This document shows positions 1,789-53,372 of a stretch of DNA of 64,000 nt, in pieces (positions within the stretch are counted from its first letter, which is position 1; each line of letters begins with the position of its first letter). The stretch spans positions 11,826-75,825 of the forward strand of contig CANRPW010000006.1 in the NCBI GenBank assembly GCA_947632615.1, written 5' to 3'. This DNA comes from an uncultured Clostridia bacterium (GTDB lineage: Bacteria; Bacillota; Clostridia; Lachnospirales; CAG-274). Made by a program: the position numbers and the translations under genes. The notes under the pieces were generated by a model that saw only the letters and a program-made list of their open reading frames with translations, was not told where the DNA came from and searched no databases.

Positions 1789-3042
1789 ATGATGGATCTT
1801 AATACAATAGGCAAAAGAGCAAAGGCGGCGGCAAGGGTTGCGGCATCTCTTACAACAGGTGATAAAAACGAGCTTCTCAAGGCTTTGGCAGCCTCTCTTA
1901 TAACCGAAAGTAAAAGCATACTTGCGGCAAATGCCGTTGATGTAGACAAGGCTGTAAAGGCAGGCACAAAAGCTTCTCTTGTAGACAGGCTTTCGCTTAA
2001 TAAGGATAGGATAGAAGCCATGGCGGACGGTCTTTTGCAGATATCAAAGCTGCCCGACCCGATCGGTGAAGTAATAAATATGAAGACCCTTCCCAACGGA
2101 CTTATTGTGGGAGAAAAGAGAGTGCCCATGGGCGTTGTGGGCATAATATATGAGGCGCGCCCCAACGTGACCGCAGATGCCTTCGGGCTTTGCCTTAAAT
2201 CGGGAAACGCCGTAATACTTAAAGGCGGCTCGGATGCTATAAATTCTAATATGGCTATTGTGGCAGCATTTAAAAAGACCATTGAAAAAATGGGTATAAA
2301 CTCCGACTTGGTGCAGCTTATAGAAGACACCTCAAGAGAAACGGCAACTGCCCTTATGCGCCTTAACGAATATATTGACGTTTTGATACCGAGAGGCGGC
2401 GGCGGACTTATAAGGTCGGTGGTTGAAAATTCCACCGTGCCCGTTATAGAAACAGGCGTAGGCAACTGCCACATATACATTGACGACACCGCCGACAAGC
2501 AAATGGGTATAGACATAATAATAAATGCCAAAACCCAGCGCCCGGGAGTATGCAATGCAGCGGAAACACTGCTTGTAAGCGAAAAAGCAGCTAAAGCTTT
2601 CCTCCCCGATGCCATAAAAGCCCTTAAGGCTAAAAATGTTGAAATAAGGGGCTGTGAAAAGACTGTCAATATCTGCCCCGATATGGGTATAAGACCCGCA
2701 ACGGAAGAGGATTATTATACGGAATTTCTTGACTACATTTTAGCCGTAAAGGTCGTCGGAAATGTAGACGAAGCAATAGAGCATATAGCAAAATATTCTA
2801 CAGGACATTCTGAGGCAATAGTTACGGAAAGCTATACCAATGCCATGAAATTCTTAAATGAGGTAGACTCTGCCGCAGTATATGTAAACGCTTCAACACG
2901 TTTTACAGACGGCAATGAGTTTGGCTTTGGAGCAGAAATAGGCATATCTACACAAAAGCTCCACGCAAGAGGCCCTATGGGGCTAAAGGCACTTACAACA
3001 TCTAAATTTATAATATACGGAAACGGTCAGATAAGAGGTTGA
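1789..3042 (+). CDS. proA: Gamma-glutamyl phosphate reductase
   Basis: 417 aa with [33 protein letters not shown] and TGHSEAIVT, matching ProA aldehyde dehydrogenase family motifs. Adjacent to proB. Confidence 0.92.
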
Positions 3043-3197
3043 TTTCAACCTCTTGGTTGAAATCAACCTGCCGCCCCGCGCAAGCCGAAGCCCAAACCGT
3101 CAAAGACGGTTTGGGCTTCGGCTTGCGCGGGACGGGTCGGGGCGAGAACAAGGCGGGGAGGGCAAAGCCCTCCCCGCCTTGTTCTCGCCCCGACCCG
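3036..3197. repeat. GC-rich hairpin array A1 (3 abutting perfect hairpins) between convergent proA and GH28
   Basis: Hand-complemented stems: 3036-3050/3055-3069 (15 bp, loop tctt, left arm includes the proA stop); 3075-3101/3105-3131 (27 bp, loop aaa); 3133-3163/3167-3197 (31 bp, loop aaa). Confidence 0.9.
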
Positions 3198-8224: not shown

Positions 8225-8458
8225 CGCCGTTCTTACTCGATCAAAGATCGAGTGCGAACGGCGACCAGCGGGGGCAAAAGGGGCGGCTTCGCCGCCCTTT
8301 TGCCCCCGCTGTTTGGCGCGCCGCCCGGCTTCCATCGAAGATGGAAGCCGGGCGGCGACCGTCGGGGCGAGGCGAGGGGAAAAAGCAAGGCAGGGACAAG
8401 CAAGCTTGTCCCTGCCTTGCTTTTTCCCCTCGCCTCGCCCCTAAAGACAGTGGCTGTC
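8225..8458. repeat. GC-rich hairpin array A2 (4 large + 1 small hairpin) between convergent fbp and permease gene
   Basis: 8225-8242/8246-8263 (18 bp, one mismatch plus one G-T, loop aaa); 8266-8311 (21 bp plus 1-nt bulge, loop ttc); 8319-8336/8340-8357 (18 bp perfect, loop gaa); 8364-8401/8404-8441 (38 bp perfect); 8446-8458 (gacag tgg ctgtc). Confidence 0.9.
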
Positions 8459-8538
8459 AGGTAAAGCTTCGTCAGACTTGAATGGTTCACAAAAAAGACG
8501 GTGAAAATCACATATTTACACCGTCTTGATTTTATGTA

Positions 8539-10695: not shown

Positions 10696-10769
<74 letters not shown>

Positions 10770-11226: not shown

Positions 11227-12627
11227 ATGAGTATGTTAAAAGAAGAATGTGGTGTATTCGGTATATGGGATCCGGACGGCGGCTGTGCCAATGTGACCTG
11301 TAATGCTCTTGTGGCTTTGCAGCACAGAGGACAGGAGGGCTGCGGAATAGCTGTTAATTTAGACAGAGAAATAAGCTATCATAAAGATACGGGGCTTGTA
11401 AATGAAGTTTTTAACAACGAAATTCTTGAAAAATACCCCGGCACAATGGCTGTTGGACATGTGCGCTATTCAACTGCCGGAGGGTCGTTTCGTGAAAACG
11501 TACAGCCCTTGGTTTTACGTTATATAAAAGGCACTCTGGCTATAGCTCATAACGGAAACATAACAAACGTAGAAGAGCTTAAAAAGCAGCTGGAGCATAA
11601 CGGAGCCATATTTCAGACAACGGCAGACTCCGAGATAATAGCCTATCAGATAGCAAGAGAGAGAATAAGCTGCGGCTCTATAGAGGAGGCGGTAAAGCTT
11701 GCAATGCCAAAGCTCAAGGGAGCATTTTCAATGCTTGTAATGAGCCCTCAGAAGCTGATCGCTGCAAGAGACCCCTGGGGATTTCGCCCCTTATGTATGG
11801 GTAGGCTTGGCAAGGCTATTGTGTTTGCTTCGGAAACGGCAGCCTTTGACGCTATAGGTGCTGAGTTTGTAAGGGACTTAAACCCCGGCGAAGTTGTCAC
11901 CGTATTCAAGGGCAAGGTAGAAGCAGAGCAGGTAGTAAAGCCCGAAAAAACCAATCTTTGCATATTCGAGCACATATATTTTGCACGTCCCGACTCAATA
12001 GTAGACGGTCAGTCTGTGCACGAGGCAAGAAAAATGGCAGGCAGGTTTCTTGCAATACAAAGCCCGGTAGATGCTGATGTTGTGGTAGGAGTGCCCGATT
12101 CGGGGCTGTCCGCCGCTCAGGGCTATTCCGAAAAATCAGGCATACCACTTAAAATGGGCTTTATAAAAAACAAATATATAGCAAGGACGTTTATAGCTCC
12201 CGAGCAGGAAACAAGACAAAACGCCGTTAAAATGAAGCTGAACGCTCTTAAAAGCGAGATAAGCGGCAAAAGAGTCGTTATGATAGACGACTCTATAGTA
12301 AGAGGTACTACATCTGCCCGCATTGTAAGCCTTTTAAGAGAGGCAGGCGCAACGGAGGTCCATGTAAGGATATCTTCTCCCCCATTTAAGTGGCCCTGCT
12401 TTTTCGGCACGGACGTGCCTACGAGAGATGAGCTTATAGCAAATCACTATGACGTATCGGAAACAGCCAAATATATAGGGGCTGACAGCTTAGACTATTT
12501 AAGCCTTGACAATCTGCTTAAAATAGCCCCCAACTCCACAAAGGATTTTTGCCATGCTTGCTTTACAGGCAAATATCCTATTGATGTTTCTCATCTTTTA
12601 GCTAAACTGGAGGGAAAGAAAAAATGA
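11227..12627 (+). CDS. purF: Amidophosphoribosyltransferase
   Basis: MSMLKEEC-GVFGI (N-terminal nucleophile Cys after a short propeptide), the PRPP motif VVMIDDSIVRGTT and C-terminal Cys residues. ATG 11227 follows the GGGGAGG RBS. Confidence 0.92.
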   Translation: MSMLKEECGVFGIWDPDGGCANVTCNALVALQHRGQEGCGIAVNLDREISYHKDTGLVNEVFNNEILEKYPGTMAVGHVRYSTAGGSFRENVQPLVLRYIKGTLAIAHNGNITNVEELKKQLEHNGAIFQTTADSEIIAYQIARERISCGSIEEAVKLAMPKLKGAFSMLVMSPQKLIAARDPWGFRPLCMGRLGKAIVFASETAAFDAIGAEFVRDLNPGEVVTVFKGKVEAEQVVKPEKTNLCIFEHIYFARPDSIVDGQSVHEARKMAGRFLAIQSPVDADVVVGVPDSGLSAAQGYSEKSGIPLKMGFIKNKYIARTFIAPEQETRQNAVKMKLNALKSEISGKRVVMIDDSIVRGTTSARIVSLLREAGATEVHVRISSPPFKWPCFFGTDVPTRDELIANHYDVSETAKYIGADSLDYLSLDNLLKIAPNSTKDFCHACFTGKYPIDVSHLLAKLEGKKK

Positions 12628-14076: not shown

Positions 14077-15351
14077 ATGGTAAAGGCAATAGTAGGCGCT
14101 AACTGGGGCGACGAAGGCAAGGGTAAAATAACCGACCTTTGTGCAGAGTCCTCCGACATAGTAGTAAGATTTCAGGGCGGAGCAAACGCAGGACACACCA
14201 TCATAAACGAGTATGGACGTTTTGCCCTTCATCAGCTCCCCTCAGGCATTTTTCACGAAAACATAACAAACATAATAGGCAATGGCTGCGCGCTTAATGT
14301 GGAATCTCTTATGGAAGAAATTGACTCAGTTAAGTCCGCAGGCATTAAGTTTAATCTTCTTATTTCCGAAAGAGCCCAGGTGCTTCTTCCCCATCATGTG
14401 CTTTTAGACACTTATGAAGAAGAAAGACTCGGCAATAAAGCCTTTGGCTCTACAAAGTCGGGTATTGCGCCATTCTTTTCCGATAAATACGCTAAGGTAG
14501 GTCTTCAGGTATGGGAGCTTTACAATGACGAGCTTCTGAAGGAAAAACTTGAAATGATGTATGACAAGGTAAACGTCACTCTTAAGCACCTTTACAATAA
14601 GCCCGAGATCAATTATATGGACGTATACGATATTCTCAAGGGCTATGCCGAAAAGATAAAGGACTATGTTGCGGATGCGAGCCTTTTCTTAAGAAATGCC
14701 ATTAAAGAAAACAAGTCAATACTTCTTGAAGGTCAGCTGGGAACACTTAAGGACACCGACCACGGTATTTATCCTTATGTAACAAGCTCCTCAACACTTG
14801 CGGGCTATGCTGCCGTTGGCTCAGGCATACCGCCATACGCCATAAAGGACATACTCTGCATTACAAAGGCATATTCCTCTGCAGTAGGCGAAGGTCCTTT
14901 CGTAAGCGAGATATTAGAGCCCGTTGAAGCCGAAGAACTCCGCAAAAGAGGCGGCGACAAGGGCGAATACGGAGCAACCACAGGCAGACCCAGACGTGTT
15001 GGCTATTTTGACACGGTTGCTACAAAATATGGCGTAGAGCTTCAGGGCGCTACAGAGGTTTGTCTTACCTGCCTTGACGTTCTTTCATATCTTGATGAAA
15101 TACCCGTATGCACAGCCTACGAGCTTGAAGGCAAAACATATAAAGACTTTCTCACAACAGATAAGCTCTATAAGTCAAAGCCTGTTGTTGAAAAGCTTAA
15201 GGGCTGGAAGTGCAATATAAAGGGTATCAAAAAATATGAGGATCTTCCCGCAGAAGCAAGAGCCTATGTTGAATTTATAGAAAAGGAAATAGGCGTTAAA
15301 ATAACAATGGTTTCTAATGGACCCGCAAGAGAAGATATAATTTACAGATAA
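14077..15351 (+). CDS. purA: Adenylosuccinate synthetase
   Basis: VVGANWGDEGKGKITD P-loop, GGANAGHT and TTGRPRRVGYFD, the classical PurA motifs. Confidence 0.93.
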   Translation: MVKAIVGANWGDEGKGKITDLCAESSDIVVRFQGGANAGHTIINEYGRFALHQLPSGIFHENITNIIGNGCALNVESLMEEIDSVKSAGIKFNLLISERAQVLLPHHVLLDTYEEERLGNKAFGSTKSGIAPFFSDKYAKVGLQVWELYNDELLKEKLEMMYDKVNVTLKHLYNKPEINYMDVYDILKGYAEKIKDYVADASLFLRNAIKENKSILLEGQLGTLKDTDHGIYPYVTSSSTLAGYAAVGSGIPPYAIKDILCITKAYSSAVGEGPFVSEILEPVEAEELRKRGGDKGEYGATTGRPRRVGYFDTVATKYGVELQGATEVCLTCLDVLSYLDEIPVCTAYELEGKTYKDFLTTDKLYKSKPVVEKLKGWKCNIKGIKKYEDLPAEARAYVEFIEKEIGVKITMVSNGPAREDIIYR

Positions 15352-15363
15352 AGTATATTTGCC

Positions 15364-15706
15364 CGCCCCTCCCAAACCATCAGAGATGGTTTGGGAGGGG
15401 CGAGCCGCGGGGCGGAGAAAAACAAAGCAAAGAGAGGGCAGCTTTGCTGCCCTCTCTTTGCTTTGTTTTTCTCCGCCCCCGCGAGCCACCCGACCGCCTC
15501 ATCTTTAGATGAGGCGGTCGGGTGGCTAAACATCAAAAGCCCGCCCAACCGAACCGCCTTTGGCGGTTCGGTTGGGCGGGCTTCGCGGGGCAGGGGAAAA
15601 CGCAGCAAAAAGAGGACGGCTTTGCCGTCCTCTTTTTGCTGCGTTTTCCCCTGCCCCCGCGAGTCGCCCCCTGCCGATCATCTTCGATGATCGGCAGGGG
15701 GCGGCT
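15364..15706. repeat. GC-rich hairpin array A3 (6 abutting hairpins) between convergent purA and a stalk-domain gene
   Basis: 15364-15381/15385-15402 (18 bp, loop aga); 15406-15483 (37 bp plus 1-nt bulge, loop ttt); 15484-15503/15508-15527 (20 bp, loop ttta); 15537-15558/15562-15583 (22 bp, loop ttt); 15584-15661 (37 bp plus 1-nt bulge, loop ttt); 15662-15682/15686-15706 (21 bp, one G-T, loop ttc). Confidence 0.9.
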
Positions 15707-15712
15707 AAAAAA

Positions 15713-16765
15713 TCATTCTGTTTCGGTAGTTGTTTCGACCGTAATGTCTGTAGTAGTTTCTGTAGTAGTTTCTGTAGTTTCCTCTGTTGTTTCTTCATCT
15801 ATAGGCTCAAGCCCAAGCGCCTCGATGGCTATGCCTGCGGGAACATACATTTTTTTGTCGACTATAGCGGCTTTTACGTCATCCTCGCCAAAATATATTA
15901 TCTCATCGTCTACAATATAATAATCGCTTTCGTGTATAAACTTAACTATTTTATCCTTATAGCATATAGTAACAGTCTTTGTGGAAGAGTCCCAATCCAC
16001 ATAGCTGTTCTCGTCATCTACTGATATAATATCGCTTATATCTCTTACTGCCACAAGATCGTTTTTGTCAAGGTCAAATATAGTCGGCTCTGCGGTCGTA
16101 GTTTCCGTTTCTTCCTCAGTAACCTCTGCAGTTGTAGGCTGCTCCGTTGTTTCTTCGGTTGTTGTTTCATCATCCGTAGGGTCAGCCTCTGTTTTGCGGT
16201 TTGCAAGAGAAGGAACGGCTACACCCTTTGTAAATATATAATTACCTGTAAGGGTTGTGCTTGATATTGTAGTTCCGTTAGACTCAATTTTTATCTTTAT
16301 ATTGCCGGAACCGTTGGCTCTTAAAGGAAGTTTTATTCTGTAACAGCCGGTTTTGTTCACGTGATTTACTCTGTAGATAGAATACCCAGCATACATTGTA
16401 GGCACGTTTATGAGCTTGACTTCCATTTCATGAGTGTTTATTCTTCTTATCTTGTAAGGAAGCTCAAAGGTTTTTACCTTTGGCATAAAGTCATAAAAGC
16501 CCTCGCCTCTCCAATCGTAAGGATATTGATACATGCTGTCAATATCAGACTGGCTGAGTATGTCGGCATTCGTAACTGATATTACTATTGATGAACCTGT
16601 TGTCACCTCATTATACGGTGTTATTTTAAGATATTGTGTGGGCTGTATAGCTTCATCTCTTATAACGCTGACTCTGTCAAGCCCTGCATAAGAAGCCGCA
16701 AATATGTTTATGTTTAAAAGTAATATAAAAGCCATTAATAGCGCTAATGTTTTTTTCATATTCAT
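15713..16765 (-). CDS. Secreted protein with Thr/Glu-rich linkers and a C-terminal copper-amine-oxidase-N-like (stalk) domain
   Basis: Signal peptide MNMKKTLALLMAFILLLNINIFAAS after a GGAGGA RBS. Two T/E-rich low-complexity tracts. KKMYVPAGIAIEALG resembles the stalk-domain core. Confidence 0.6.
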   Translation of the reverse strand: MNMKKTLALLMAFILLLNINIFAASYAGLDRVSVIRDEAIQPTQYLKITPYNEVTTGSSIVISVTNADILSQSDIDSMYQYPYDWRGEGFYDFMPKVKTFELPYKIRRINTHEMEVKLINVPTMYAGYSIYRVNHVNKTGCYRIKLPLRANGSGNIKIKIESNGTTISSTTLTGNYIFTKGVAVPSLANRKTEADPTDDETTTEETTEQPTTAEVTEEETETTTAEPTIFDLDKNDLVAVRDISDIISVDDENSYVDWDSSTKTVTICYKDKIVKFIHESDYYIVDDEIIYFGEDDVKAAIVDKKMYVPAGIAIEALGLEPIDEETTEETTETTTETTTDITVETTTETE

Positions 16766-16912
16766 TCCTCCAATTCCACAGTATTTTCTTTTTATATTAT
16801 ACACCAAATTTACAGATTTTGCATTAGAAAATTATTAATTTTTGTTAAAGACAAATTTCACAAACTTCGCTTTGTGAGTATACTCTTTATAGAAACCGTG
16901 AGGTAAAATATT

Positions 16913-19485: not shown

Positions 19486-20175
19486 ATGAAAAAAATGTTA
19501 TTATTAGGCGCAGCCTTGGCTATGTGTTTCAATCCGTTTACGGTTTTGGCTTCCCAGGGAACGCAGCAGGCACAAATAACCTACAAAAACATAACCGTAT
19601 ACACCGACGGCAAGCTTGTTGACACAACAGGCGCAGAGCCATTTATTTACAACGGTACTACATATCTCCCCGTAAGAGCCATAGCAAACGCTGTAGGCAA
19701 GGAGGTAAACTGGGTAGGCGAAACCAACACAGTCTATCTTGGGGCTATGCCCTCAGCCTTTGTAGAAACAGACACCCTTCTTGAAGATATGTACTCCTAC
19801 AACAACAGCTTTGCAAAAATAGAGCATGTAAATAAGGGCGCAGACAACCAAAACCAAAAGCACGAAAGCGGCTGCCTTCTTAAATGCACAAGCGTAGGGG
19901 CAGAAACCGAAAATAAAGTGGAATATTCATTAAACGGTAAATATAAGAGCTTTAAAGCCGTTGTTGCCGTGCCTTATGTTGAAAGAAACAATAAAAATCC
20001 CAAAACAGTCAAAATATATTCAGATGATAAGGTAGTATATACCTCAAACCCCATGAAGGCAGATTCACAGCCCGAAGCAGTTGACATTGATGTCTCAGAT
20101 ACAGCAGTGCTCAAAATAGAGGTAGAAGGCTCAGGCATAATAGGCTTATATGACGCTATGTTTTACACAAAATAA
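19486..20175 (+). CDS. Secreted stalk-domain (copper-amine-oxidase-N-like) protein with C-terminal NPCBM-like beta domain
   Basis: Signal peptide MKKMLLLGAALAMCFNPFTVLA. PFIYNGTTYLPVRAIANAVGKEVNW is the typical stalk-domain core. The assignment of the C-terminal beta-rich module is tentative. Confidence 0.65.
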   Translation: MKKMLLLGAALAMCFNPFTVLASQGTQQAQITYKNITVYTDGKLVDTTGAEPFIYNGTTYLPVRAIANAVGKEVNWVGETNTVYLGAMPSAFVETDTLLEDMYSYNNSFAKIEHVNKGADNQNQKHESGCLLKCTSVGAETENKVEYSLNGKYKSFKAVVAVPYVERNNKNPKTVKIYSDDKVVYTSNPMKADSQPEAVDIDVSDTAVLKIEVEGSGIIGLYDAMFYTK

Positions 20176-20329
20176 AGCCGACCATATAAACGGCTCATAA
20201 GCGGAGCGAGGGAACAAAGAAAAGACAGGGGAGAGCAGCTTTGCTGCTCTCCCCTGTCTTTTCTTTGTTCCCTCGCTCCGCCCCCGGTGGTCCGCCTTCT
20301 TTTAACATCTGTGATGTTAAAAGGAGGCG
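20176..20329. repeat. GC-rich hairpin array A4 between a convergent stalk-domain gene and xylB
   Basis: 20176-20195 (weak 5-bp stem); 20201-20239/20243-20281 (39 bp perfect, loop ttt); 20293-20309/20313-20329 (17 bp, one G-T, loop tgt). Confidence 0.9.
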
Positions 20330-29588: not shown

Positions 29589-32500
29589 ATGAAGCTTAAT
29601 TTCGTGCTTGGAAAAAGCGGCAGCGGCAAAACAAGCTATTGCATAGACAAAATGCTTTGCGCTCCCCTGTCAAAAAAAATAATATATATAACACCCGAGC
29701 AATTTACGCTTGAGTCTGAAAAAAAGCTGACGGCTCTTAGAAGGTCACTCATAAATATAGATGTTGTCAGCTTTAACAGGCTGCGTTTTCATATGGCGGT
29801 GGATACGGGCAGCATAAGAAAGGAATTTCTTGACGACGAAAGCAAAAGCATGATATTAAGAAGGCTTATATGCGAGCTTGACCTTAAGGCGCTTAATATA
29901 AATGCCAACAGCCCCGGTGCTGTAGAGCGCATAGGCAGGGCAATAAGCGAATTTTACAGATTTGGCATAAGCTGTGATATGCTTAAGGGCAGAATTTCCG
30001 AAATAGAAGAAGAAAACAAGGGCTTCGGCGAAAAAATGAAGGACCTTCTTGCCATATACGAACGCTATGACAGCTTTATATCGGAAAAGTATATTTCTTC
30101 CGATCAACTTTTGGACTATATAGCCGACAAAATTAAGGAAAGCTCTCTTTTTGACGGCAGCCTTGTAGTTATAGACGGCTTCAACAGCTTCACCGCCCAG
30201 GAGTATAAGGTAATATCCGAAATTCTTGCATACGCCGAAGAAACCACCGTCACCCTGTGTATGGAAAAAGCAGTAGACAAGCTTGAAAGCGATGTGCTTT
30301 TAGACCCCTTCTACGAAACCAAAAAGGCGTATGTAAAAATACTGGGTCTTTTCAGAGAGCTTTTTCCCAAAGACGGAGAGGTAAAAAACATATATCCCGG
30401 CTTTGTGTCTAAAAGAAAAGCAGCTTTAGGACATTTGGAGAGAGAATTTTTTAATATAGAACCCGAAAAATACCAAGCCCCTGCTCCCGAAATAAAGGTT
30501 ATAGCCGGGGTAAACCCAAGAGCCGAGGTATCGGCAGTATGTGATGAGATCTGCCGACTTGCGGAAAACGGCGTGAGATATAGAGAAATGGCAGTCATAC
30601 TTTGTGACCCCTCATATCTTTCCATACTCAGAAGCGAGCTGAAAAAAAGAGGTGTACCCGACTTTACAGACGGAAGAACCCCTGTGGTGTCTCACCCCTG
30701 CGCCGTTTTTATGGTCTCTCTTGTAAATATGCTGGCATATAATCTGAACTCAGACTATGTTTTTACATTTTTAAAGACAGACCTTACAGATATAGACAAA
30801 GAGGACGTAATGCGCCTTGAAAAATACGCCGCCAAAAGAGGCGTCAGCGGCTATAGATGGGGCTATGAATTTAATGACGAACATTTGGAAAGCGTAAGGC
30901 AAAGATTTATGGAAATAATTGCCCCCATGTACGAAGCCTTTACACCTACAGGCAAATATACCGTGGAAGAGATAAGCCGAAAAATATTCGATGTAATAGA
31001 TGAAGCCCACTTTTACGATAAATATGAGCCCCTTACAAACGACCCCGATGACAAGGTATTGTCGTCAAGGTATAAACAGGTATGGGAGCAGACTATTGCT
31101 ACCTTTGATAAAATGGAAGAATTTTTAGGGGATCAGAAAGTAACTCTTGAAGAATACGGCGAAATTTTAAAAACAGGATTTGGCGGAAAATCTGTAGCCA
31201 CCATACCTCTTTACGGAGACAACATAATAATAGGCGACATAGAAAGAAGCCGTCTGCCCGAGATAAAGGCTATGTTTGTTTTAGGCGCAATAAGAGGAAG
31301 CCTGCCGAGAAGGTTTGACGACGATGGGCTTATAAGTGATGCGGAAAGAGAGCTTATGAAGGCAAAGGGCTTAGAGCTTGCAGCAGGCAGCGACGAGATG
31401 TTATCACTTGAATATCTCAAAATATATCAGATATTCACAAAGCCCACCGACTATCTTATGATAAGCTATCCCATAGGCACAAACTCGGGAGAAAAGCTCG
31501 AAAAATCAGAAATAGCCGATAAAATAGAAAAAATGTTTTCTATCACACCTAAGGTATATGCCGAAAAAATTTACTCTCCTAAATGCACTGAGCCCTTTAT
31601 GCCAAAGAATTCTATCTCCGAAGAACTGACAAGGAAGATATATAAAGACGAGCTCACCCTTTCAAGCTCCCGCCTTGACAGATATGTAAAATGCCCGTTT
31701 TCATACTATCTCAAGTATGTTTTACAGCTTCAGGAGGAAAAAAACTTTGAAATAAACAGCCTTGACAAGGGCAATGTAATGCACAGCATTATGGAAAAAT
31801 TTTTCAAGGAACAGGATGATATTGAAAACCTTACAGACGAAGAAATAAGCCGCAAGGTGGGCGAAATGATGCCTCAAATTCTGGAAGATACTATTCCCAA
31901 TATATTTGGAGATGAAAAAAAGCTTCCTGAAAATATGCTTAAGCTAAAATATTTTTGCCGTGTTATGGAAAAAACAGCAGAAAAATCTCTTAGGGCAAAC
32001 ATCGACCAGCTTACAAACAGCAGCTTTTTGCCTGCGGAATTTGAAGTGAGCTTTGGAAACAAGCCGGGTGATATGTTTTCCGCAATAGACCTTGGCAGCG
32101 GTATAAAGCTTGCAGGAAAGATCGACAGGGTAGACCTCTTTGAGCACGACAACAAAATATATGTAAAAATAACCGACTATAAATCCTCTGTGCAGACCAT
32201 TGACTTTACGGAGATATACAACGGACTGAAGCTTCAGATGATATTATATTTAAAGGCATACATATCCGAAAGGCAAAAGAAGGAAGATAAAAAAACCGTG
32301 ACCCCGTCGGGACTTATGTATTTTGCATTTCAAAATCCTTTGACAGATGAAGACAAGGTGGGCAGCGAAAACATTAAAAATCATATAAAAGACAGCTTTC
32401 GCCCCGTAGGCATAGTTTCTGAAAATGAAGAAAACCTGAAGGCGCTTGAAAATAAAAACGACAAGTCATATTTTAAAAATTTGGAATGTGTATCAGAAGA

Positions 32501-32702
32501 CTTTCTTAATTCTCTAATGGACAAAGGCATGAAAAAAGCGGAAGCGATAGGTAATGACATACGCCAAGGCAAGTTTCCTGCTATGCCGTATTTATATAAA
32601 TCCCAATACGGCTGTGACTACTGTCCCTACGAAGGAATTTGTAAGATCGATATAGACAGATCAAAAAGAAAAATATTCAAAAAAGAAGAAAGCGAAAAGT
32701 AA
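29589..32702 (+). CDS. addB: ATP-dependent helicase/nuclease subunit B (AddB/RexB)
   Basis: 1037 aa with an N-terminal P-loop GKSGSGKT, a C-terminal PD-(D/E)XK region (GKIDRVD...ITDYKSS) and terminal Cys cluster CDYCPYEGIC. Confidence 0.88.
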   Translation: MKLNFVLGKSGSGKTSYCIDKMLCAPLSKKIIYITPEQFTLESEKKLTALRRSLINIDVVSFNRLRFHMAVDTGSIRKEFLDDESKSMILRRLICELDLKALNINANSPGAVERIGRAISEFYRFGISCDMLKGRISEIEEENKGFGEKMKDLLAIYERYDSFISEKYISSDQLLDYIADKIKESSLFDGSLVVIDGFNSFTAQEYKVISEILAYAEETTVTLCMEKAVDKLESDVLLDPFYETKKAYVKILGLFRELFPKDGEVKNIYPGFVSKRKAALGHLEREFFNIEPEKYQAPAPEIKVIAGVNPRAEVSAVCDEICRLAENGVRYREMAVILCDPSYLSILRSELKKRGVPDFTDGRTPVVSHPCAVFMVSLVNMLAYNLNSDYVFTFLKTDLTDIDKEDVMRLEKYAAKRGVSGYRWGYEFNDEHLESVRQRFMEIIAPMYEAFTPTGKYTVEEISRKIFDVIDEAHFYDKYEPLTNDPDDKVLSSRYKQVWEQTIATFDKMEEFLGDQKVTLEEYGEILKTGFGGKSVATIPLYGDNIIIGDIERSRLPEIKAMFVLGAIRGSLPRRFDDDGLISDAERELMKAKGLELAAGSDEMLSLEYLKIYQIFTKPTDYLMISYPIGTNSGEKLEKSEIADKIEKMFSITPKVYAEKIYSPKCTEPFMPKNSISEELTRKIYKDELTLSSSRLDRYVKCPFSYYLKYVLQLQEEKNFEINSLDKGNVMHSIMEKFFKEQDDIENLTDEEISRKVGEMMPQILEDTIPNIFGDEKKLPENMLKLKYFCRVMEKTAEKSLRANIDQLTNSSFLPAEFEVSFGNKPGDMFSAIDLGSGIKLAGKIDRVDLFEHDNKIYVKITDYKSSVQTIDFTEIYNGLKLQMILYLKAYISERQKKEDKKTVTPSGLMYFAFQNPLTDEDKVGSENIKNHIKDSFRPVGIVSENEENLKALENKNDKSYFKNLECVSEDFLNSLMDKGMKKAEAIGNDIRQGKFPAMPYLYKSQYGCDYCPYEGICKIDIDRSKRKIFKKEESEK

Positions 32703-32708
32703 TTCCAC

Positions 32709-33180
32709 ACGCCCATCAAATCACCACAGGTAATTTGATGGGCGTATGGCGCGGGCGAGGGGAAAATGGGGGCGGGCAAGCCCGCCCCCATTTTCCCCTC
32801 GCCCGCGCTCTGCGCCGGGACGGGGTGAATGAAGCGAGGATGAGGGCTGCTGCGCAGCCCTCATCCTCGCTTCATTCACCCCGTCCCGGCGCAGAGACAG
32901 CCAAACCGTCTGCGACGGTTTGGCTGTCGAGGCAATATAGCGCCTTCAACTCTTCAAATCACCTTCGGTGATTTGAAGAGTTGAAGGCACTGCGCGCGCG
33001 AGGAGAAAGCGGGGGACGGGCAAGCCCGTCCCCCGCTTTCTCCTCGCGCGCGCAGTGCATCGGGGCTGGGGCGAACGAACCGAGGGGAAGGACAGCTGCG
33101 CTGTCCTTCCCCTCGGTTCGTTCGCCCCAGCCCCGATGCCTCGACTCCCGAACCGTCTACGACGGTTCGGGAGTCGAGGC
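32709..33180. repeat. GC-rich hairpin array A5 (8 abutting hairpins, about 470 bp) between convergent addB and a stalk-domain gene
   Basis: 32709-32745 (13 bp); 32749-32777/32780-32808 (29 bp); 32810-32850/32854-32894 (41 bp, loop tgc); 32896-32910/32914-32928 (15 bp, tgc); 32942-32963/32967-32988 (22 bp, ttc); 32989-33021/33024-33056 (33 bp); 33057-33096/33100-33139 (40 bp, tgc); 33139-33157/33161-33179 (19 bp, tac). All stems are perfect by hand check. Confidence 0.92.
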
Positions 33181-33185
33181 GTCCT

Positions 33186-34532
33186 TTAAAATATTATCTG
33201 AACTGTACGAGAATTTCCATCATAGGTTATATTTTCGGAAGCAATATCAAAAGCATTGCATACATCTCTTACGGGAATATACATCATAGAATTATAAGCA
33301 TTTGCCGGAGTTGATACCGGTATTTTGACTCCGTTTGAGATCAGTATATCGCTGCCCTGCTGTATAGAGATTTCCTTTTCACCCTTTTTAAGAACAGCCG
33401 TCTTTGCAGCACTGTCATAGCTTATATTTTCATCTGTTATTCCTATAGCATTGGCAAGAGCTCTTAAAGGTAAAAGTGTTCTGTCATTTACTATTATACA
33501 GGGCGCGCCTGTCTTAACAGTTTCTCCGTTAAGGGTGTATGAAGCGCTGCCCACGGTAAATTTAAGTACATTCTCATCATCCGCCGTATTTTCACTGCTG
33601 TTTGTTTCGGCTGTTAAAGCACTGTCTTCATTTAAAGCTACACCGGCATCAAAATATTTGTGAGCCTCATAGCTTCTTTTAGCCTGTTCTCCCTCATTTG
33701 TGGTATATTTTGTCTCAGCATTTGCCGAAACATAAAACTTCGGCACAACTCCCTTAGCTTTGTTGTTTTTTATCATTTTAAGCCCGGAGATCTTTATGTT
33801 GCCCATTTCGGCATTAGTTTCTCCGTCAAGCTTTATAGTAAAGGTCTTGCTTCCGATGGCTTCTACGGTCAATTTGTCCTCATACTTGCCCTCGCCCACA
33901 ACAACGGGAGAGCCTGCAAAGTCAAAGCCATTGTCAGCAAGAGTTATTTTAAATTCTGTTTTGTCAGGGCTTAAGGCAAAGCTTGTCTTATCCCTTATCA
34001 CAATATCAGAAAGCTCAGAAATACCGCTTTTATATATAGCTGCATTTTCATCATAGTCTATAGTGAAATATCCTGCCAGGTTGCTTGCAAACAGGAAGGT
34101 TGCATCATCCATATATGTGGGTGTTTCCGTTATATTAATATAAACAAGCCCGTCAGAAAAATTTTTCGCATAAAGCGGCAAAGCTATATCTATATTATTT
34201 TCTTTAAACATGGTTTTAAAATAATCGTAAGTAAATTTCACCTGAATATCATTTTTTGACGTTTCGGTTATTTGAATATTTTTATCTATGCTTGACATTT
34301 TGCCGATATCCCATTCCGCTCCGTCAAGAACCATGTGAAAAGCAAGGTCGCTTGTAGACTGACCTTTTACGTTTAATAAAAGCTGGGGCACATCTCCCTT
34401 TGCCTTTCCCAAATTCATATCATAATATGCGCCTTTAAGCTCTGCAGTGCAACCATTTCTTGCAGCAAACACACTGCCTGCCTGTAAAACAACTGCCACC
34501 ACGAGTATAAGTGTAAAAATATACTTTTTCAT
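33186..34532 (-). CDS. Secreted protein with two C-terminal stalk (copper-amine-oxidase-N-like) repeats
   Basis: ATG 34532 follows the GAGGAGG RBS. Signal peptide MKKYIFTLILVVAVVLQAGSVFA. The C-terminus has IIVNDRTLLPLRALANAIG and MMYIPVRDVCNAFD. Confidence 0.65.
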   Translation of the reverse strand: MKKYIFTLILVVAVVLQAGSVFAARNGCTAELKGAYYDMNLGKAKGDVPQLLLNVKGQSTSDLAFHMVLDGAEWDIGKMSSIDKNIQITETSKNDIQVKFTYDYFKTMFKENNIDIALPLYAKNFSDGLVYINITETPTYMDDATFLFASNLAGYFTIDYDENAAIYKSGISELSDIVIRDKTSFALSPDKTEFKITLADNGFDFAGSPVVVGEGKYEDKLTVEAIGSKTFTIKLDGETNAEMGNIKISGLKMIKNNKAKGVVPKFYVSANAETKYTTNEGEQAKRSYEAHKYFDAGVALNEDSALTAETNSSENTADDENVLKFTVGSASYTLNGETVKTGAPCIIVNDRTLLPLRALANAIGITDENISYDSAAKTAVLKKGEKEISIQQGSDILISNGVKIPVSTPANAYNSMMYIPVRDVCNAFDIASENITYDGNSRTVQIIF

Positions 34533-34741
34533 TTTAAAAAACCTCCTCAAAACAAAATCCAACAAAACTATAATAACACATTTCAAAAAAAATGTATAGT
34601 ATCAATATAAATTATTCGCCTTAAATACTCATTTTTTGACCCAAAACCCCTCAACAAATGAAAATATTTATTGCTTTTTGTTTTATAGGATATTAAAATT
34701 AACATATAGGCGTTTTTACAAATAACAAGGAGATAAATTTT

Positions 34742-37245: not shown

Positions 37246-38052
37246 TTGAAAAAAATAGTCAAAAACGATCTTATATATTTTGTATTTGAAAGCTTTGAAA
37301 AAACAGGTCTTGTAAGACATTGTTTTTCAAGCAGAAAAGGCGGAGTTTCCGAAGGCTGCTACGAGTCCCTTAACCTGAGCTTCAGAGAAGATAAGCCCGA
37401 AAACGTGGTCAAAAACTACCAAATACTGTGCGATGCCATAGGCAGCGACTACAGAAATACGGTGTTTTCCGACCAAGTCCACAGAGATGACATATATGAC
37501 GTAACTCTTGCCGACAGAGGAAAGGGTCTTATTACCCCACGGGAAATAACCGAGAAGGACGGGCTTATGACAAACATACCGGGAATAGTTTTGGTCACAT
37601 TTTATGCTGACTGCACACCCCTCTATTTTTTAGATCCCATTAAAAAGGTAATTGCCTTAAGCCATTCGGGCTGGAGAGGTACCGTGCTTGGCATAGGAGC
37701 AAAAACAGTGCACAAAATGGTAAGCGACTACGGCTGCCGAACAGACGACATATTATGCGGAATTGGTCCTTGTATAGGCAAGTGCTGCTATCAGGTGGAC
37801 GAGAAAGTGGCGGGCGATTTTGGTCGAAGGTACGCCTTCGCCAAAGAGCATATTTCCCCGGATGAAGAAAGGGGCAAGTATTTACTTGACCTCAAAGGTA
37901 TGAACAAAGACATACTTATAAGTGCAGGCATACGCCCTGAAAATATAGAAATATCCGATCTATGCACGAAGTGCGAGAGCGATCTTCTCTTTTCTCACAG
38001 AGTTATGGGAAGTCAAAGAGGCAGCTTAGCCGCACTTATGGAGCTGATATAA
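37246..38052 (+). CDS. pgeF: Peptidoglycan editing factor PgeF (YfiH / laccase-domain protein)
   Basis: FSSRKGGVS..., QVH, ADCTP and SHSGWRG motifs of the YfiH/DUF152 family. TTG start. Confidence 0.85.
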   Translation: MKKIVKNDLIYFVFESFEKTGLVRHCFSSRKGGVSEGCYESLNLSFREDKPENVVKNYQILCDAIGSDYRNTVFSDQVHRDDIYDVTLADRGKGLITPREITEKDGLMTNIPGIVLVTFYADCTPLYFLDPIKKVIALSHSGWRGTVLGIGAKTVHKMVSDYGCRTDDILCGIGPCIGKCCYQVDEKVAGDFGRRYAFAKEHISPDEERGKYLLDLKGMNKDILISAGIRPENIEISDLCTKCESDLLFSHRVMGSQRGSLAALMELI

Positions 38053-38075
38053 TAAAAAATATAAACTGACAAAGT

Positions 38076-38185
38076 GCCGGGTTGGCGGGGCGAGATGGGG
38101 CGGCGCAGCCGCCCCATCTCGCCCCGCCCCGGCGCCGGTTTCTGTCAACAGCTTTCCGTAGGAAAGCTGTTGACAGAAACCGGCG
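38076..38185. repeat. GC-rich hairpin array A6 (2 hairpins) between co-directional pgeF and der
   Basis: 38076-38133 (26 bp plus a 3-nt bulge gtt, loop gca); 38133-38157/38161-38185 (25 bp perfect, loop gta). Only 29 nt separate the array from the der ATG. Confidence 0.9.
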
Positions 38186-38214
38186 GCAAACCTTATTTGA
38201 ACGGAGGAAAAATC

Positions 38215-39537
38215 ATGGCAAAGCCTATAGTTGCCATTGTTGGAAGACCAAACGTTGGCAAATCGACTTTATTTAACAGAATAGCAGGCGAGAGAATATC
38301 CATAGTTGAAGATACGCCGGGCGTAACAAGAGACAGAATATACGCCGAGGCGGATTGGCTGGATCATAATTTTACAATGATAGACACAGGCGGCTTAGAA
38401 CCTGCCAGTGAAGACTTTATGCTTAAAAGAATGTACGAGCAGGCAGAAATAGCCATAGACCTTGCCGATGTCATACTTTTTGTAACAGACATAAAGGCAG
38501 GCGTCACCGATGCGGACGTTCAGGTGGCGGAGATACTCAGGCGTGCAAAAAAGCCTATTGTGCTTGTGGTAAACAAAATGGACGACCCTAAAAAATATAG
38601 CTCGGATATTTATGAATTTTATGAGCTTGGGCTTGGTGAGCCATTCGGCGTTTCTGCAGGACAGGCTCTTGGCCTTGGTGACCTTCTTGACGAGGTGGTT
38701 TCTCACTTTGACAAAAATTCCGCCCAAGAGGAGGAGAACGTAATAAAGGTTGCCGTTGTGGGCAAGCCCAATGCAGGCAAGTCTTCTCTGATAAACAAGA
38801 TACTCGGTGAAGAAAGAGTTATTGTAAGTGATATAGCGGGCACAACAAGAGATGCCATAGACACCCGCTACGAAAAAGATGGCAAAAAATATGTTTTCAT
38901 AGACACAGCCGGCATAAGGCGCAAAAGCAAAATAAAGGAAAATATCGAAAAATACAGCATTATAAGAGCCGTGGCAGCTGTTGAGCGCTGTGACGTGTGT
39001 ATAATCTTAATCGATGCCAACGAGGGCGTTACGGATCAGGACACAAAGATAGCAGGCATAGCCCACGAAGCGGGCAAGGGCTGTATAATCGCCGTAAACA
39101 AATGGGACACCATAGAGAAGGACGGAAAGACAATAAACAAATTCTCAAAGGACATAGACTTAGAGCTTAAATATATGCTCTATGCTCCTAAAATATTTAT
39201 TTCTGCCCTTACGGGACAAAGGGTGCAAAATCTGTTTGCCCTTATAAACGAAGTCCACGAAAACAACACAAAGCGTGTGCAGACAGGTATATTAAACGAT
39301 GTTTTGACAGAGGCTCTGGCTATGAATCAGCCACCTGCCGAAAAGGGCAGACAGCTGAGGATATATTATATGACACAGGTTTCCGTAAAGCCGCCCACCT
39401 TTGTTATTTTTGTAAACAACTCCGAGCTTTTGCATTTTTCATACAAGCGCTATATAGAAAATCAGCTAAGAGATGCATTTGGATTTAAGGGTACGACAAT
39501 ACACTTTATTGTAAGAAACAGAAACGAAAGGAATTAA
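38215..39537 (+). CDS. der: Ribosome-associated GTPase Der (EngA)
   Basis: Two G domains ([12 protein letters not shown] and [12 protein letters not shown]) plus a KH-like C-terminus. ATG 38215 follows GGAGGAAA. The ORF-track extension to 38074 reads through the hairpins. Confidence 0.93.
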
Positions 39538-41205: not shown

Positions 41206-41347
41206 CGCCCTGTTTTAACATCTCTATCGAGATGTTAAAACAGGGCGACCCGTGGGGGCGTGGGAGAGAGGCGAGGCGAGCCGAGGGAAACGGAGCCGCT
41301 TCGGGCTCCGTTTCCCTCGGCTCGCCTCGCCTCTCTCCCACGCCTCC
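41206..41347. repeat. GC-rich hairpin array A7 (2 hairpins) between co-directional gpsA and the GH43 gene
   Basis: 41206-41224/41229-41247 (19 bp perfect, loop tatc); 41254-41297/41304-41347 (44 bp with one G-T, loop gcttcg). Confidence 0.9.
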
Positions 41348-41415
41348 AAACCGCAGCTTTGTTGGCAAAAATCTTTGTTTGGCAAAATTTTAAAATTATA
41401 TATAGGAGAAAAATT

Positions 41416-48468: not shown

Positions 48469-48505
48469 AAAAAACCGCTCCTTTAAAACAAGAGCGGAAA
48501 AAAAT
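48469..48505 (-). terminator. Intrinsic terminator readable on the minus strand
   Basis: ccgctc (48475-48480) pairs with gagcgg (48492-48497). On the minus strand the stem is followed by tttttt. Confidence 0.4.
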
Positions 48506-48585
48506 AAATTTATTAAAGATACTTGATACGCAACAAGCATTATGCTATAATTAAAGCTTAGAAAGGAGGTGTCAGAATAATTGAT

Positions 48586-48669
48586 TTGATCACTGGCTTG
48601 ATAAGCTTAATAACCTCAATAATTTCACTCATAACAGCGGTTATTTTGTACAAGCTCAGTAAAAAGTAA
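48586..48669 (+). CDS. Candidate small hydrophobic peptide 1 (about 27-30 aa, Lys-rich C-terminus)
   Basis: AGGAGG at 48564-48569. The frame reads (IID)LITGLISLITSIISLITAVILYKLSKK*. The start codon is ambiguous (ATA 48577, ATT 48580 or TTG 48586). Confidence 0.3.
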   Translation: MITGLISLITSIISLITAVILYKLSKK

Positions 48670-48728
48670 ACTACCGGAGAGGGTTACGCCATCTCCCTCT
48701 TTGGGGCTATAAATCAATCATCAAAAAT

Positions 48729-48821
48729 ATGCAATACATTTCATTAATAATTTCAATTCTTGCCTTTATCATTGCCGTAATAGCTTTGATTAAGGTGATC
48801 AAAAAGTCAAAGGAGAAGTAA
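48729..48821 (+). CDS. Candidate small hydrophobic peptide 2 (30 aa), paralogue of peptide 1
   Basis: ATG 48729: MQYISLIISILAFIIAVIALIKVIKKSKEK*. It shares the ISLI..I....I.AVI...K..KK pattern with peptide 1. The stop lies 1 nt before the GTG of the HTH gene. Confidence 0.35.
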   Translation: MQYISLIISILAFIIAVIALIKVIKKSKEK

Positions 48822-48822
48822 A

Positions 48823-49023
48823 GTGTCTGAATTTAATACTACTAAGGAACTGCGGGATTTTATTTCCGACAATGTGATTTCTACGGGTGAAGCAGCTGAA
48901 ATTCTCGGTTGCTCACGCCAATATATAAATCAGCTTGTGAAGGAAAAAAAGCTTATTCCCATAAAAAAAATCAATTATATAACACTGTTTTTAAAATCAG
49001 ATGTAGAAGCAAGACTTAAATAG
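48823..49023 (+). CDS. Xis/AlpA-like helix-turn-helix DNA-binding protein (66 aa)
   Basis: ISTGEAAEILGCSRQYINQLVKEKKLIPIKK is a typical HTH_17/excisionase-type motif. GTG start after AAGGAGAAG. Confidence 0.6.
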   Translation: MSEFNTTKELRDFISDNVISTGEAAEILGCSRQYINQLVKEKKLIPIKKINYITLFLKSDVEARLK

Positions 49024-49027
49024 CTTT

Positions 49028-49057
49028 AAAGCAAGGCTTAATCAGTCTTGCTTTTTT
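49028..49057 (+). terminator. Intrinsic terminator after the HTH gene
   Basis: aaagcaag / cttgcttt 8-bp stem with an 11-nt loop and a T-run. Confidence 0.55.
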
Positions 49058-49306
49058 CATTGGTGAGTTTTAACTGGCAGTATTAGCCCCAAGCAGTCCC
49101 CACACTCTAAATCAACCATTCTGTTTATTCACCGCCGTTTTTTAAGCTGTCAAGATATTCGTCCGCCTTGATTGCCTCCTGTGTAAAGATGTTAGCCCGG
49201 AGCGATGTACCTATGGTGAAGGCAAGGCTTATAAGCTGTGTTATCTGCTCGTCCCCTATGGGTAGGAGAGTTATACCCCTAACAGTTATTTACATTAAAT
49301 AAATAT

Positions 49307-49345
49307 ACACAAAAAGACTCAGGCCTTTATTGGGGTGAGTCTTTT
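49307..49345 (-). terminator. Intrinsic terminator (minus strand) after the Cys-rich protein gene
   Basis: aaaagactca / tgagtctttt 10-bp stem. The minus strand continues tgtgtat. Confidence 0.5.
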
Positions 49346-49381
49346 ATTTATGTAGTCGTTTATTTGTGAATGATGGGGGTA

Positions 49382-53195: not shown

Positions 53196-53372
53196 CCAAA
53201 CCGCGGTCAGGAGCGCGGGGGCGAGGCGGGCAAAGCAAAAAGGGACAATGGACGGGTTTACCCGTCCATTGTCCCTTTTTGCTTTGCCTGCCTCGCCCCC
53301 GCGCGCACGCCGCCCTGCCTCAACACGCCAAAACCGCCGTAGGCGGTTTTGGCGTGTTGAGGCAGGGCGGCG
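53196..53372. repeat. GC-rich hairpin array A8 at the 3' end of the pan operon / upstream of the dehydratase operon
   Basis: 53213-53256/53261-53304 (44 bp with one G-T, loop ttta); 53308-53338/53342-53372 (31 bp perfect, loop gta). A one-armed remnant of the CCAAACCGC tip lies at 53196-53204. Confidence 0.9.

Follow-up and report, generated by a model that had tools for sequence, protein, structure and literature searches.

Six abutting hairpins fill nearly all of the gap (15352-15712) between purA and a convergent gene in a 64,000-nucleotide stretch of DNA, hereafter called the window, from an uncultured, Lachnospirales-like Clostridia bacterium of the gut (contig CANRPW010000006.1). Together they form a block of 346 nucleotides (15361-15706) in which a short-long-short unit of three hairpins occurs twice in tandem, and they belong to a larger family of GC-rich palindromes in the same window. 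We regard this family as an exceptionally clear example, from nature, of concerted evolution between the two arms of inverted repeats. The explanation that we prefer, with a confidence only a little better than even, is that the arms of a duplicating palindrome family are kept complementary by concerted evolution at the level of DNA, aided by selection for hairpin stability. The family resembles the REP and REPIN palindromes but carries no sequence tag, has hypervariable arms and is restricted to one lineage.

The two long hairpins of the block have the structures that were claimed for them in an earlier reading made from the sequence only. Each has a perfect stem of 34 base pairs (15409-15442 with 15446-15479, and 15587-15620 with 15624-15657) closed by a ttt loop, and beyond a single unpaired cytosine on the 3' side each continues for three more pairs, with 5' CGCGGGGC opposite GCCCCCGCG 3'. 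Folded as single-stranded DNA, the block (358 nucleotides as folded) adopts exactly the six stems, with a minimum free energy of -212.9 kcal/mol compared with -70 ± 4 kcal/mol for dinucleotide shuffles (z = -35.6). Kinship extends to the flanking short hairpins. The first of each unit (A and A') has GCCCGCCC... at its foot, and the last of each unit (B and B') shares the sequence AG(C/T)C(A/G)CCC... and shows an insertion or deletion (indel) of two nucleotides that is mirrored, as GA on the 5' arm and TC on the 3' arm. Because these short hairpins are also paralogous, and the indel between B and B' is mirrored, we conclude that the block is a tandem direct duplication of a three-hairpin unit of 178 nucleotides. 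This is the start-to-start spacing of the two units, and the co-linear order of their hairpins agrees with the duplicated short-long-short arrangement proposed in the sequence-only reading.

A formal pair count on the ungapped 78-nucleotide alignment of the long hairpins (15406-15483 with 15584-15661) reveals how they have diverged. Among the 37 pairs, 29 are invariant, eight are altered on both sides and none is altered on one side only, such that 100% of the cells are paired. It had been stated that the arms differ at roughly a third of positions, which is too high (8/37, or 22%), and that every difference is mirrored on the opposite arm, which holds for all eight. When the 3' partners are shifted by 1-3 columns as a control, just 0-1 double changes are found, and a chance match of eight differences with the opposite arm, in position as well as in base, has a probability of about 4e-12. 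Seven of the mirrored changes exchange G:C and A:T, and one converts A:T to C:G.

The same reading treated the shared single-nucleotide bulge as proof of common descent. The unpaired cytosine is indeed present in both hairpins and their paralogy is sound, but the weight placed on the bulge was excessive, given that just 3-4 flanking pairs lie beyond it; this cytosine may be part of an inherited flank rather than a functional feature. Descent from a common ancestor is better demonstrated by the co-linear order of the units, the arm identity of 80% (z = 5.7 versus shuffled arms) and the identical ttt loop. Independent insertion of two pre-formed palindromes, which had been raised as a competing possibility, is unlikely for this pair, as the order of the three hairpins, their loops and their flanks are all co-linear.

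Many more hairpins of this kind are present elsewhere in the window (Table 1). Scanning for stems that are perfectly paired over 12 base pairs or more, with loops of up to 8 nucleotides, yielded 26 hairpins, of which about 24 are GC-rich (56-86% GC, where the window has 43%) and lie in eight arrays, all of them intergenic. Two classes can be distinguished by length and by the composition of the 5' arm: the long class has stems of 21-45 base pairs and summed 5' arms rich in purines (G 205, A 117, C 77, T 15), and the short class has stems of 15-31 base pairs and 5' arms rich in C (C 118, A 48, G 39, T 32). All loops but one have 2-3 nucleotides, and 21 of 23 hairpins are closed by a 5'-C...G-3' pair; both characteristics are signs of real hairpin formation. 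The 8-mer GGGGCGAG occurs nine times in the window, always within arrays and in five of them, and it often starts the outer GC clamp of the long class. A search pattern, CCRAACCRYCNNNGRYGGTTYGG, has five matches in the window where none would be expected.

Array 5 provides a second, independent case of a tandemly duplicated unit, in this instance short-long-long-short, whose copies are more diverged than those of the purA block. Although its pairs of long hairpins have arm identities of 65-73% and differ by internal indels, pairing is perfect in seven of the eight stems. Within an array, the long-hairpin pairs and the short hairpins B and B' (15484 and 15662) are reciprocal best matches, which indicates local duplication. 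Considering all seven paralogous pairs of the two duplicated arrays (15361-15706 and 32705-33183), the 5' arms differ by 39 substitutions (27 of them transitions) and by internal indels of 1-2 nucleotides, and these changes are mirrored on the 3' arms with the exception of a few mismatches at the foot.

The 23 family hairpins contain about 650 perfectly paired base pairs in total. Of about 800 pairs in the window, about seven are mismatched; each of these is a transition-type mismatch (G.T or C.A), and most are no more than four pairs from the foot. Thus, the half-compensated intermediates that the sequence-only reading suggested looking for do occur, including two T.G pairs in a sister species, but they are rare, and such states are about 20-40 times less frequent than would be expected from the divergence of the copies if the arms evolved independently. 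The proposal that pairing is actively maintained or regenerated is strengthened by the seven mirrored paralogous pairs, with their 39 substitutions and their indels, and by mirrored changes between orthologues that are described below.

Table 1. Hairpins of the purA block with its bordering genes, and the eight hairpin arrays of the window
Feature	Position	Strand	Description
purA (adenylosuccinate synthetase)	14077..15351	+	Pfam PF00709, E=2.5e-159; stop 9 nucleotides before first hairpin
Short hairpin A	15361..15405		Loop aga; 5' arm rich in C; C.A mismatch near foot after 18 bp perfect
Long hairpin 1	15406..15483		34 bp perfect, one unpaired C, 3 more pairs; loop ttt; 5' arm G/A-rich without T
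Short hairpin B	15484..15527		21 bp perfect, loop tt
A-rich spacer of 9 nucleotides between units	15528..15536		Gives T-rich tail after hairpin A' on minus strand
Short hairpin A'	15537..15583		22 bp perfect, loop ttt; paralogue of A
Long hairpin 2	15584..15661		34 bp perfect, unpaired C, 3-4 more pairs; loop ttt; paralogue of long hairpin 1
Short hairpin B'	15662..15706		18 bp perfect, then T.G mismatch near foot; loop ttc; paralogue of B
Convergent gene, Cu_amine_oxidN1 domain	15713..16807	-	Pfam PF07833 and open reading frame list; stop 6 nucleotides from last hairpin
Array 1	3071..3197		One short and one long hairpin, convergent gap; beside ordinary terminator 3036-3069
Array 2	8259..8441		Convergent gap; G-rich nested hairpin, short 8319-8357, long 8364-8441 (38 bp perfect)
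Array 3	15361..15706		purA block, six hairpins
Array 4	20201..20281		Single long hairpin, 39 bp perfect, convergent gap; absent from orthologous gap of sister species
Array 5	32705..33183		Eight family hairpins, short-long-long-short twice; gap between addB and convergent gene, 2 nucleotides left at each stop
Array 6	38084..38185		Two hairpins between yfiH and der; orthologues in sister species; genes abut in outgroups
Array 7	41206..41348 (long hairpin from 41253)		Gap from gpsA to GH43 gene; one terminator-like hairpin and one long hairpin with 44 pairs, of which one is G.T; in sister species, not in outgroups
Array 8	53213..53372		Gap between two minus-strand genes; long hairpin of 44 pairs with one internal G.T, short hairpin with 31 bp perfect

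Palindromes of this perfection might arise as assembly or sequencing artefacts, through chimeric fold-back reads, and the short-read contigs of this species do break inside the arrays. Contig ends fall in or beside arrays in both this species and its sister (the ends of contigs L001, L002 and L003, and the starts of L220, L226 and L227). However, three independent contigs from separate samples (two from ENA and one from Logan) match the purA block at every base that they reach before each of them ends inside the array. In addition, array 2 is crossed intact by ENA contig L001, and orthologous hairpins are present in five contigs of another species. This agreement establishes that the hairpins are real DNA that breaks short-read assemblies, and we see next to no chance that they are artefactual. 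Such arrays are probably under-represented in metagenome-assembled genomes (MAGs), a bias that has to be considered where they are missing from relatives. Sampling of the species itself is narrow. Its other contigs match the window apart from one coding single-nucleotide polymorphism, C/A at 11439 in purF, which is the sole difference over an 11.4-kb overlap with L001, and the hairpins are identical, which implies that the samples hold essentially one strain. Furthermore, the purA, Der and FGGY proteins each fall in a single-member 90% cluster.

Comparison with relatives reveals that the hairpins are insertions. The closest comparison is with a sister species (contigs L216-L220 and L226-L230) that comes from the same study and whose Der protein is 92% identical. 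Genus-level relatives (purA 83-89% and Der 87-88% identical; 103 kb examined) serve as outgroups, and the nearest species-representative genomes are uncultured Clostridia or Lachnospirales MAGs whose purA proteins are 74-76% identical. Perfect stems of at least 20 base pairs occur at 0.30 per kb in the window, at 0.023 per kb in the sister species, and not at all in the 103 kb of the outgroups or in 677 kb of other Clostridia. Even perfect stems of at least 14 base pairs are lacking from the 103 kb of the outgroups, and none of the 80 loci in species-representative relatives carries hairpins of this kind.

The outgroups retain the gene order of the window (rnhB-yraN-yfiH-der-plsY-gpsA-GH43), but their genes abut. 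The gap between yfiH and der is 4-5 nucleotides in the outgroups versus about 160 in the window, and that between gpsA and the GH43 gene is 13-27 versus about 230; in the window, both gaps consist largely of hairpin. As the outgroup genes abut at precisely the junctions that hold arrays 6 and 7, the hairpins there must have been inserted. The sister species has hairpins at both orthologous junctions. At the first junction, the details of the change can be followed. In the outgroups (L222, 5960-6025; L224, 3755-3820), der has a ribosome-binding site that overlaps with the stop codon of yfiH (GGAGGTAA). A hairpin-bearing insertion of about 150 nucleotides in the window (38040-38225) and in the sister species has replaced the last yfiH codons, changing LMELRR* to LMELI*, and has shifted the der ribosome-binding site downstream. 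Neither of the two sites with a known empty state has a visible target-site duplication.

Other sites differ even between the window and its sister. The convergent gap between the FGGY and NPCBM genes is 58 nucleotides long in the sister species (L226, 11495-11552) and contains just an ordinary imperfect terminator, where the window has the 39-base-pair hairpin of array 4. Therefore, copies have continued to be gained or lost since the two species separated.

Orthologous hairpins that occupy the same sites in both species are 83-86% identical, and the changes between them are again mirrored. The long hairpin at 41253 has undergone six mirrored substitutions (five transversions and one transition); one further change, from C to T, is unmirrored, and the sister species has a T.G pair there. 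The hairpin at 38084 differs by mirrored 1-nucleotide indels and a transversion and has a perfect 21-base-pair stem in both species, and the hairpin at 38133 differs by mirrored multi-nucleotide indels. Between the two species, divergence reaches 45-54% at four-fold degenerate sites of five flanking genes, compared with about 14-17% in the orthologous arms. Because the arms change about three times more slowly than these sites, they must be constrained rather than freely drifting.

Given these observations, we propose the following course of events. A short-long-short unit was duplicated in tandem to generate the 346-nucleotide block, and the copies diverged afterwards with each palindrome remaining perfect in its Watson-Crick pairing. 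A change in one arm would either be erased or be copied to the other arm by a process acting on DNA. This process would most likely be template switching within the palindrome as it is replicated, or else repair that uses the folded hairpin as its template. Most changes would be purged by selection, which would favour very stable hairpins. The involvement of single DNA-level events is indicated by the combination of mirrored indels, mirrored transversions that have no wobble intermediate, and pairing that is about 99% Watson-Crick with almost no G.T. Unbiased copying between arms, if acting alone, would produce divergence at the neutral rate, and the three-fold slowdown therefore means that selection or GC-biased correction also acts, presumably in favour of hairpin stability.

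Homogenization of inverted-repeat arms by template switching has been described previously (PMC5941160; doi 10.1101/2021.04.15.439925; PMC7202029), with experimental support in Escherichia coli and comparative support from Proteobacteria and ribosomal RNA stems. This mechanism predicts perfect arms across orthologues, mirrored multi-nucleotide and indel changes that arise in one step, and compensation of substitutions of any type. The characteristics by which concerted inverted repeats are recognized are evident here, in that the arms stay identical and both multi-nucleotide and indel changes are mirrored, and from these we infer that template switching is the copying mechanism. The known cases differ in that they comprise scattered short repeats (with arms of a few to about 15 base pairs) and ribosomal RNA stems, rather than proliferating, arrayed palindromes of 20-45 base pairs.

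The main rival explanation, which we consider unlikely, requires no copying between arms at the DNA level. Under this alternative, the hairpins would be functional RNA stems, such as terminators or protectors of transcript 3' ends, that are preserved by purifying selection and by compensatory mutations occurring in two steps. The location of the arrays fits well with such a function because they lie only downstream of genes in the window. Arrays occupy five of nine convergent junctions and three same-strand gaps, and are found in none of the eight divergent gaps, where promoters reside; at convergent junctions they can extend almost from stop codon to stop codon (see Table 1, arrays 3 and 5). 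Seven of the 12 long-class hairpins have an inner GC stem followed by a T-rich tract, located 4-13 nucleotides from the loop, that is paired with an A-tract of the other arm. The inner core of the hairpin at 15406-15483 was flagged as terminator-like on both strands by a terminator scan, and the long class thus has the appearance of a bidirectional terminator core with a GC clamp around it. The unmirrored sites, read on one of the two strands, are wobble-type pairs.

Other features are difficult to accommodate with RNA-level selection alone. Every mirrored indel of 1-3 nucleotides, whether between paralogues or orthologues, would need two independent matching events, and five of the six mirrored substitutions in the orthologous 41253 hairpins are transversions without a wobble intermediate. 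RNA stems tolerate G.U pairs, but pairs of this type make up no more than about 1% here, and some of the mismatches are C.A on the plus strand. Moreover, 35-45 perfect pairs, in as many as eight consecutive hairpins, go far beyond what is needed for termination or protection.

Several observations weigh against concerted arm copying as we have proposed it, or against a role for the products at transcript ends. The species is represented only by near-identical contigs. The 27 transitions among the 39 paralogous differences could also have been reached by the classical two-step route through G.U, and the roughly three-fold slower change of the arms relative to four-fold sites demonstrates selection that might suffice without a copying mechanism. 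Homology between arrays is weak, with arm identities of 60-71%, biased composition and the 8-mer GGGGCGAG as the sole shared word. With regard to function, the full hairpins are not canonical terminators because no T-tract follows the foot, and a strong terminator would have polar effects in the conserved operon yfiH-der-plsY-gpsA, which contains two of the arrays.

The cellular role of the hairpins is probably one at transcript ends, which we infer to be termination or RNA protection. In many long-class members, the inner GC stem with its A- and T-tracts would resemble a bidirectional terminator. As in Rho-independent bidirectional terminators, the hairpins follow stop codons, often between convergent genes, and many of the long class combine an inner GC stem and a 3-nucleotide loop with an A-tract upstream and a T-tract downstream. 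They differ from such terminators in that the A- and T-tracts are paired within an outer GC clamp, the complete stem is not followed by a T-tract, and up to eight hairpins occur in a row. On the minus strand, TTTTGATGTTT comes after hairpin A'. Ordinary, AT-richer terminators with U-tracts are also present in this genome (46758-46797 and 62120-62150), and so the GC-rich hairpins form a separate class.

The terminator-like cores and the placement exclusively at gene 3' ends, along with an AT-rich spacer after array 7 that contains possible -35 and -10 elements, suggest a role at transcript ends. Eight consecutive hairpins and hairpins within an operon fit better with selfish or neutral expansion, and the hairpins may be purely selfish occupants of tolerated 3' space. 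The spacer in question (41349-41415) is an extra AT-rich stretch before the ribosome-binding site of the GH43 gene, which is found in the window and not in the sister species. TTGGCA and TATATA-like hexamers were spotted in it by eye, without a promoter scan, and it may be a new promoter that offsets a terminator inserted into the operon.

A different alternative is that the hairpins are born perfect, either de novo or by re-insertion, through fold-back copying or the action of a dedicated enzyme, such that differences between copies merely reflect different source molecules. This alternative explains readily why all copies are near-perfect however different they are from one another, and loops of 2-3 nucleotides closed by C..G are what fold-back priming should leave. 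New copies do arise, as illustrated by the 20201 hairpin that is present in the window and absent in the sister species, and others have been inserted into junctions of formerly abutting genes. Nonetheless, we judge it to be a distinctly improbable account. The order short-long-short (or short-long-long-short in array 5) is repeated co-linearly, with reciprocal best matches position by position, and orthologues that are 83-86% identical with few mirrored changes point to evolution in place. There is also no candidate transposase, reverse transcriptase or nuclease in the 64-kb window, and no visible target-site duplication.

The existence of tandem duplicates means that arrays grow locally, and the window-only hairpin at 20201 and the insertions between once-abutting genes mean that new sites are colonized as well. 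It is doubtful, but conceivable, that the hairpins are a previously undescribed kind of repeat unrelated to the REP/RAYT system, in which a lineage-specific and possibly enzyme-driven process makes long perfect palindromes, inserts them at the ends of genes, multiplies them into arrays that occupy whole gaps between stop codons, and actively regenerates the complementarity of their arms. A palindrome-making system of this type might be enabled by an altered repertoire of hairpin-processing genes, and the largest array lies directly after addB, at the position where addA is expected. Such a change in gene content might also explain why palindromes are tolerated.

The gene neighbourhood on which this speculation is based (window 29589-33186) is as follows. 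The addB gene (ADDB_N and PDDEXK_1 domains, 1037 amino acids) is followed 2 nucleotides after its stop by array 5 and then by a convergent gene. Upstream is thiI, and addA adjoins addB on neither side. We take the normal arrangement to be that of Bacillus subtilis, where addA, and in that organism also sbcD-sbcC, follows addB. In the sister species, the contig ends about 120 nucleotides beyond the addB stop.

Among known systems, REP, BIME and REPIN elements are the most similar to the hairpin family. They are likewise extragenic, GC-rich, multicopy palindromes that form ordered arrays, including tandem units, at the 3' ends of genes and vary in abundance among lineages, and compensatory changes on both sides of the stem have been reported to be common in REPIN hairpins (PMC3116915). 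However, the GTAG/CGTC tag by which such repeats are defined (PMC3733652) is not a feature of these hairpins: GTAG is found at none of 24 feet, and CGTC/GACG is near five of 24 with inconsistent placement. The same publication lists GTAG repeats in other phyla and makes no mention of Firmicutes, whereas the host here belongs to a Clostridia lineage. There is no invariant 16-mer core, copies being only 60-80% alike, and the stems are essentially perfect and up to 45 base pairs long, whereas those of REPs are imperfect and far shorter. Finally, REP and REPIN elements are mobilized by RAYT tyrosine transposases, and Pfam scans of the approximately 54 open reading frames (ORFs) of the window found no RAYT or IS200-like Y1 gene, nor any candidate integrase; only housekeeping genes were recognized.

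GC-rich palindromes have also invaded the AT-richer intergenic space of organelles in a lineage-specific manner, as exemplified by the GC clusters of yeast mitochondria, the PstI palindromes of Neurospora and the repeats of Volvox. Their hosts and sequence families are different from those described here.

Other classes of repetitive elements were considered and rejected. The hairpins are not miniature inverted-repeat transposable elements because the whole element is a palindrome, no target-site duplication is visible at the two known empty sites, and no transposase is encoded in the window. They do not form an integron attC array, as their feet (CGCG, GCCC or AGCC) have no R''/R' core sites, the stems are perfect with loops of 2-3 nucleotides, and there are no cassettes. 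CRISPR arrays are excluded by the lack of spacers and of identical repeats, and protelomerase sites by the 2-3 unpaired nucleotides at the hairpin centres.

Database and literature searches produced no better match. Rfam searches of the whole window at gathering thresholds identified only a tRNA at 10696, and a permissive Rfam scan of 15300-15760 gave only sub-threshold matches to hairpins resembling miRNA precursors. Searches by blastn against plasmids returned nothing, and those against phages only a trivial terminator-like match of 31 nucleotides. The pattern CCRAACCRYCNNNGRYGGTTYGG has no matches in viral contigs; it matches at least 120 metagenome stretches, and among the matches listed none has arrays or a likeness to the window. 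In the literature, our searches turned up no description of comparable arrays from Clostridia or Lachnospiraceae.

It seems appropriate to ask what these hairpins can teach, given that the copying mechanism is already known in principle. How stems stay paired while their sequences drift is an old problem, and here the answer can be read almost directly: dozens of palindromes of 20-45 base pairs are 20-40% apart and yet maintain about 99% Watson-Crick pairing. The family stands out by its scale and perfection, by its mirrored indels, by empty sites that are known, and by having a Clostridial host. The mirrored indels and transversions among paralogues and between species, in addition to the known empty sites, make it possible to test one-step arm copying against its two-step alternative in bacteria as they occur in nature. 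The family also represents a REP-like invasion of 3' intergenic space in Clostridia without the hallmarks of REPs.

There are practical consequences as well, because in gut metagenomes short-read assemblies are interrupted at such arrays and gene callers are misled by them. Spurious ORFs or N-terminal extensions are created by the arrays at 15391-15690, 8233-8511, 32735-32971 and 38074-38214. The public Der protein call, for example, has 480 amino acids (P0121) compared with 440 in relatives because its start lies inside hairpins.

Some additional observations concern the genes beside the arrays. The Cu_amine_oxidN1 domain, which is of a secreted or cell-wall type, is encoded by three genes bordering the convergent arrays 3, 4 and 5 (15713-16807, 19486-20175 and 33186-34586). 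In the outgroup MAG with the 89%-identical purA (P0005), the gene next after purA encodes an FlK-family thioesterase. Thus, the expected downstream neighbour is missing at two arrays, namely those after purA (the FlK gene, as judged from outgroups) and after addB (addA, by analogy with B. subtilis), and arrays may mark the junctions of rearrangements or islands. Lastly, the window includes a convergent gap of 911 nucleotides (48471-49381) that is free of hairpin arrays, Rfam matches and ORFs of at least 70 amino acids.

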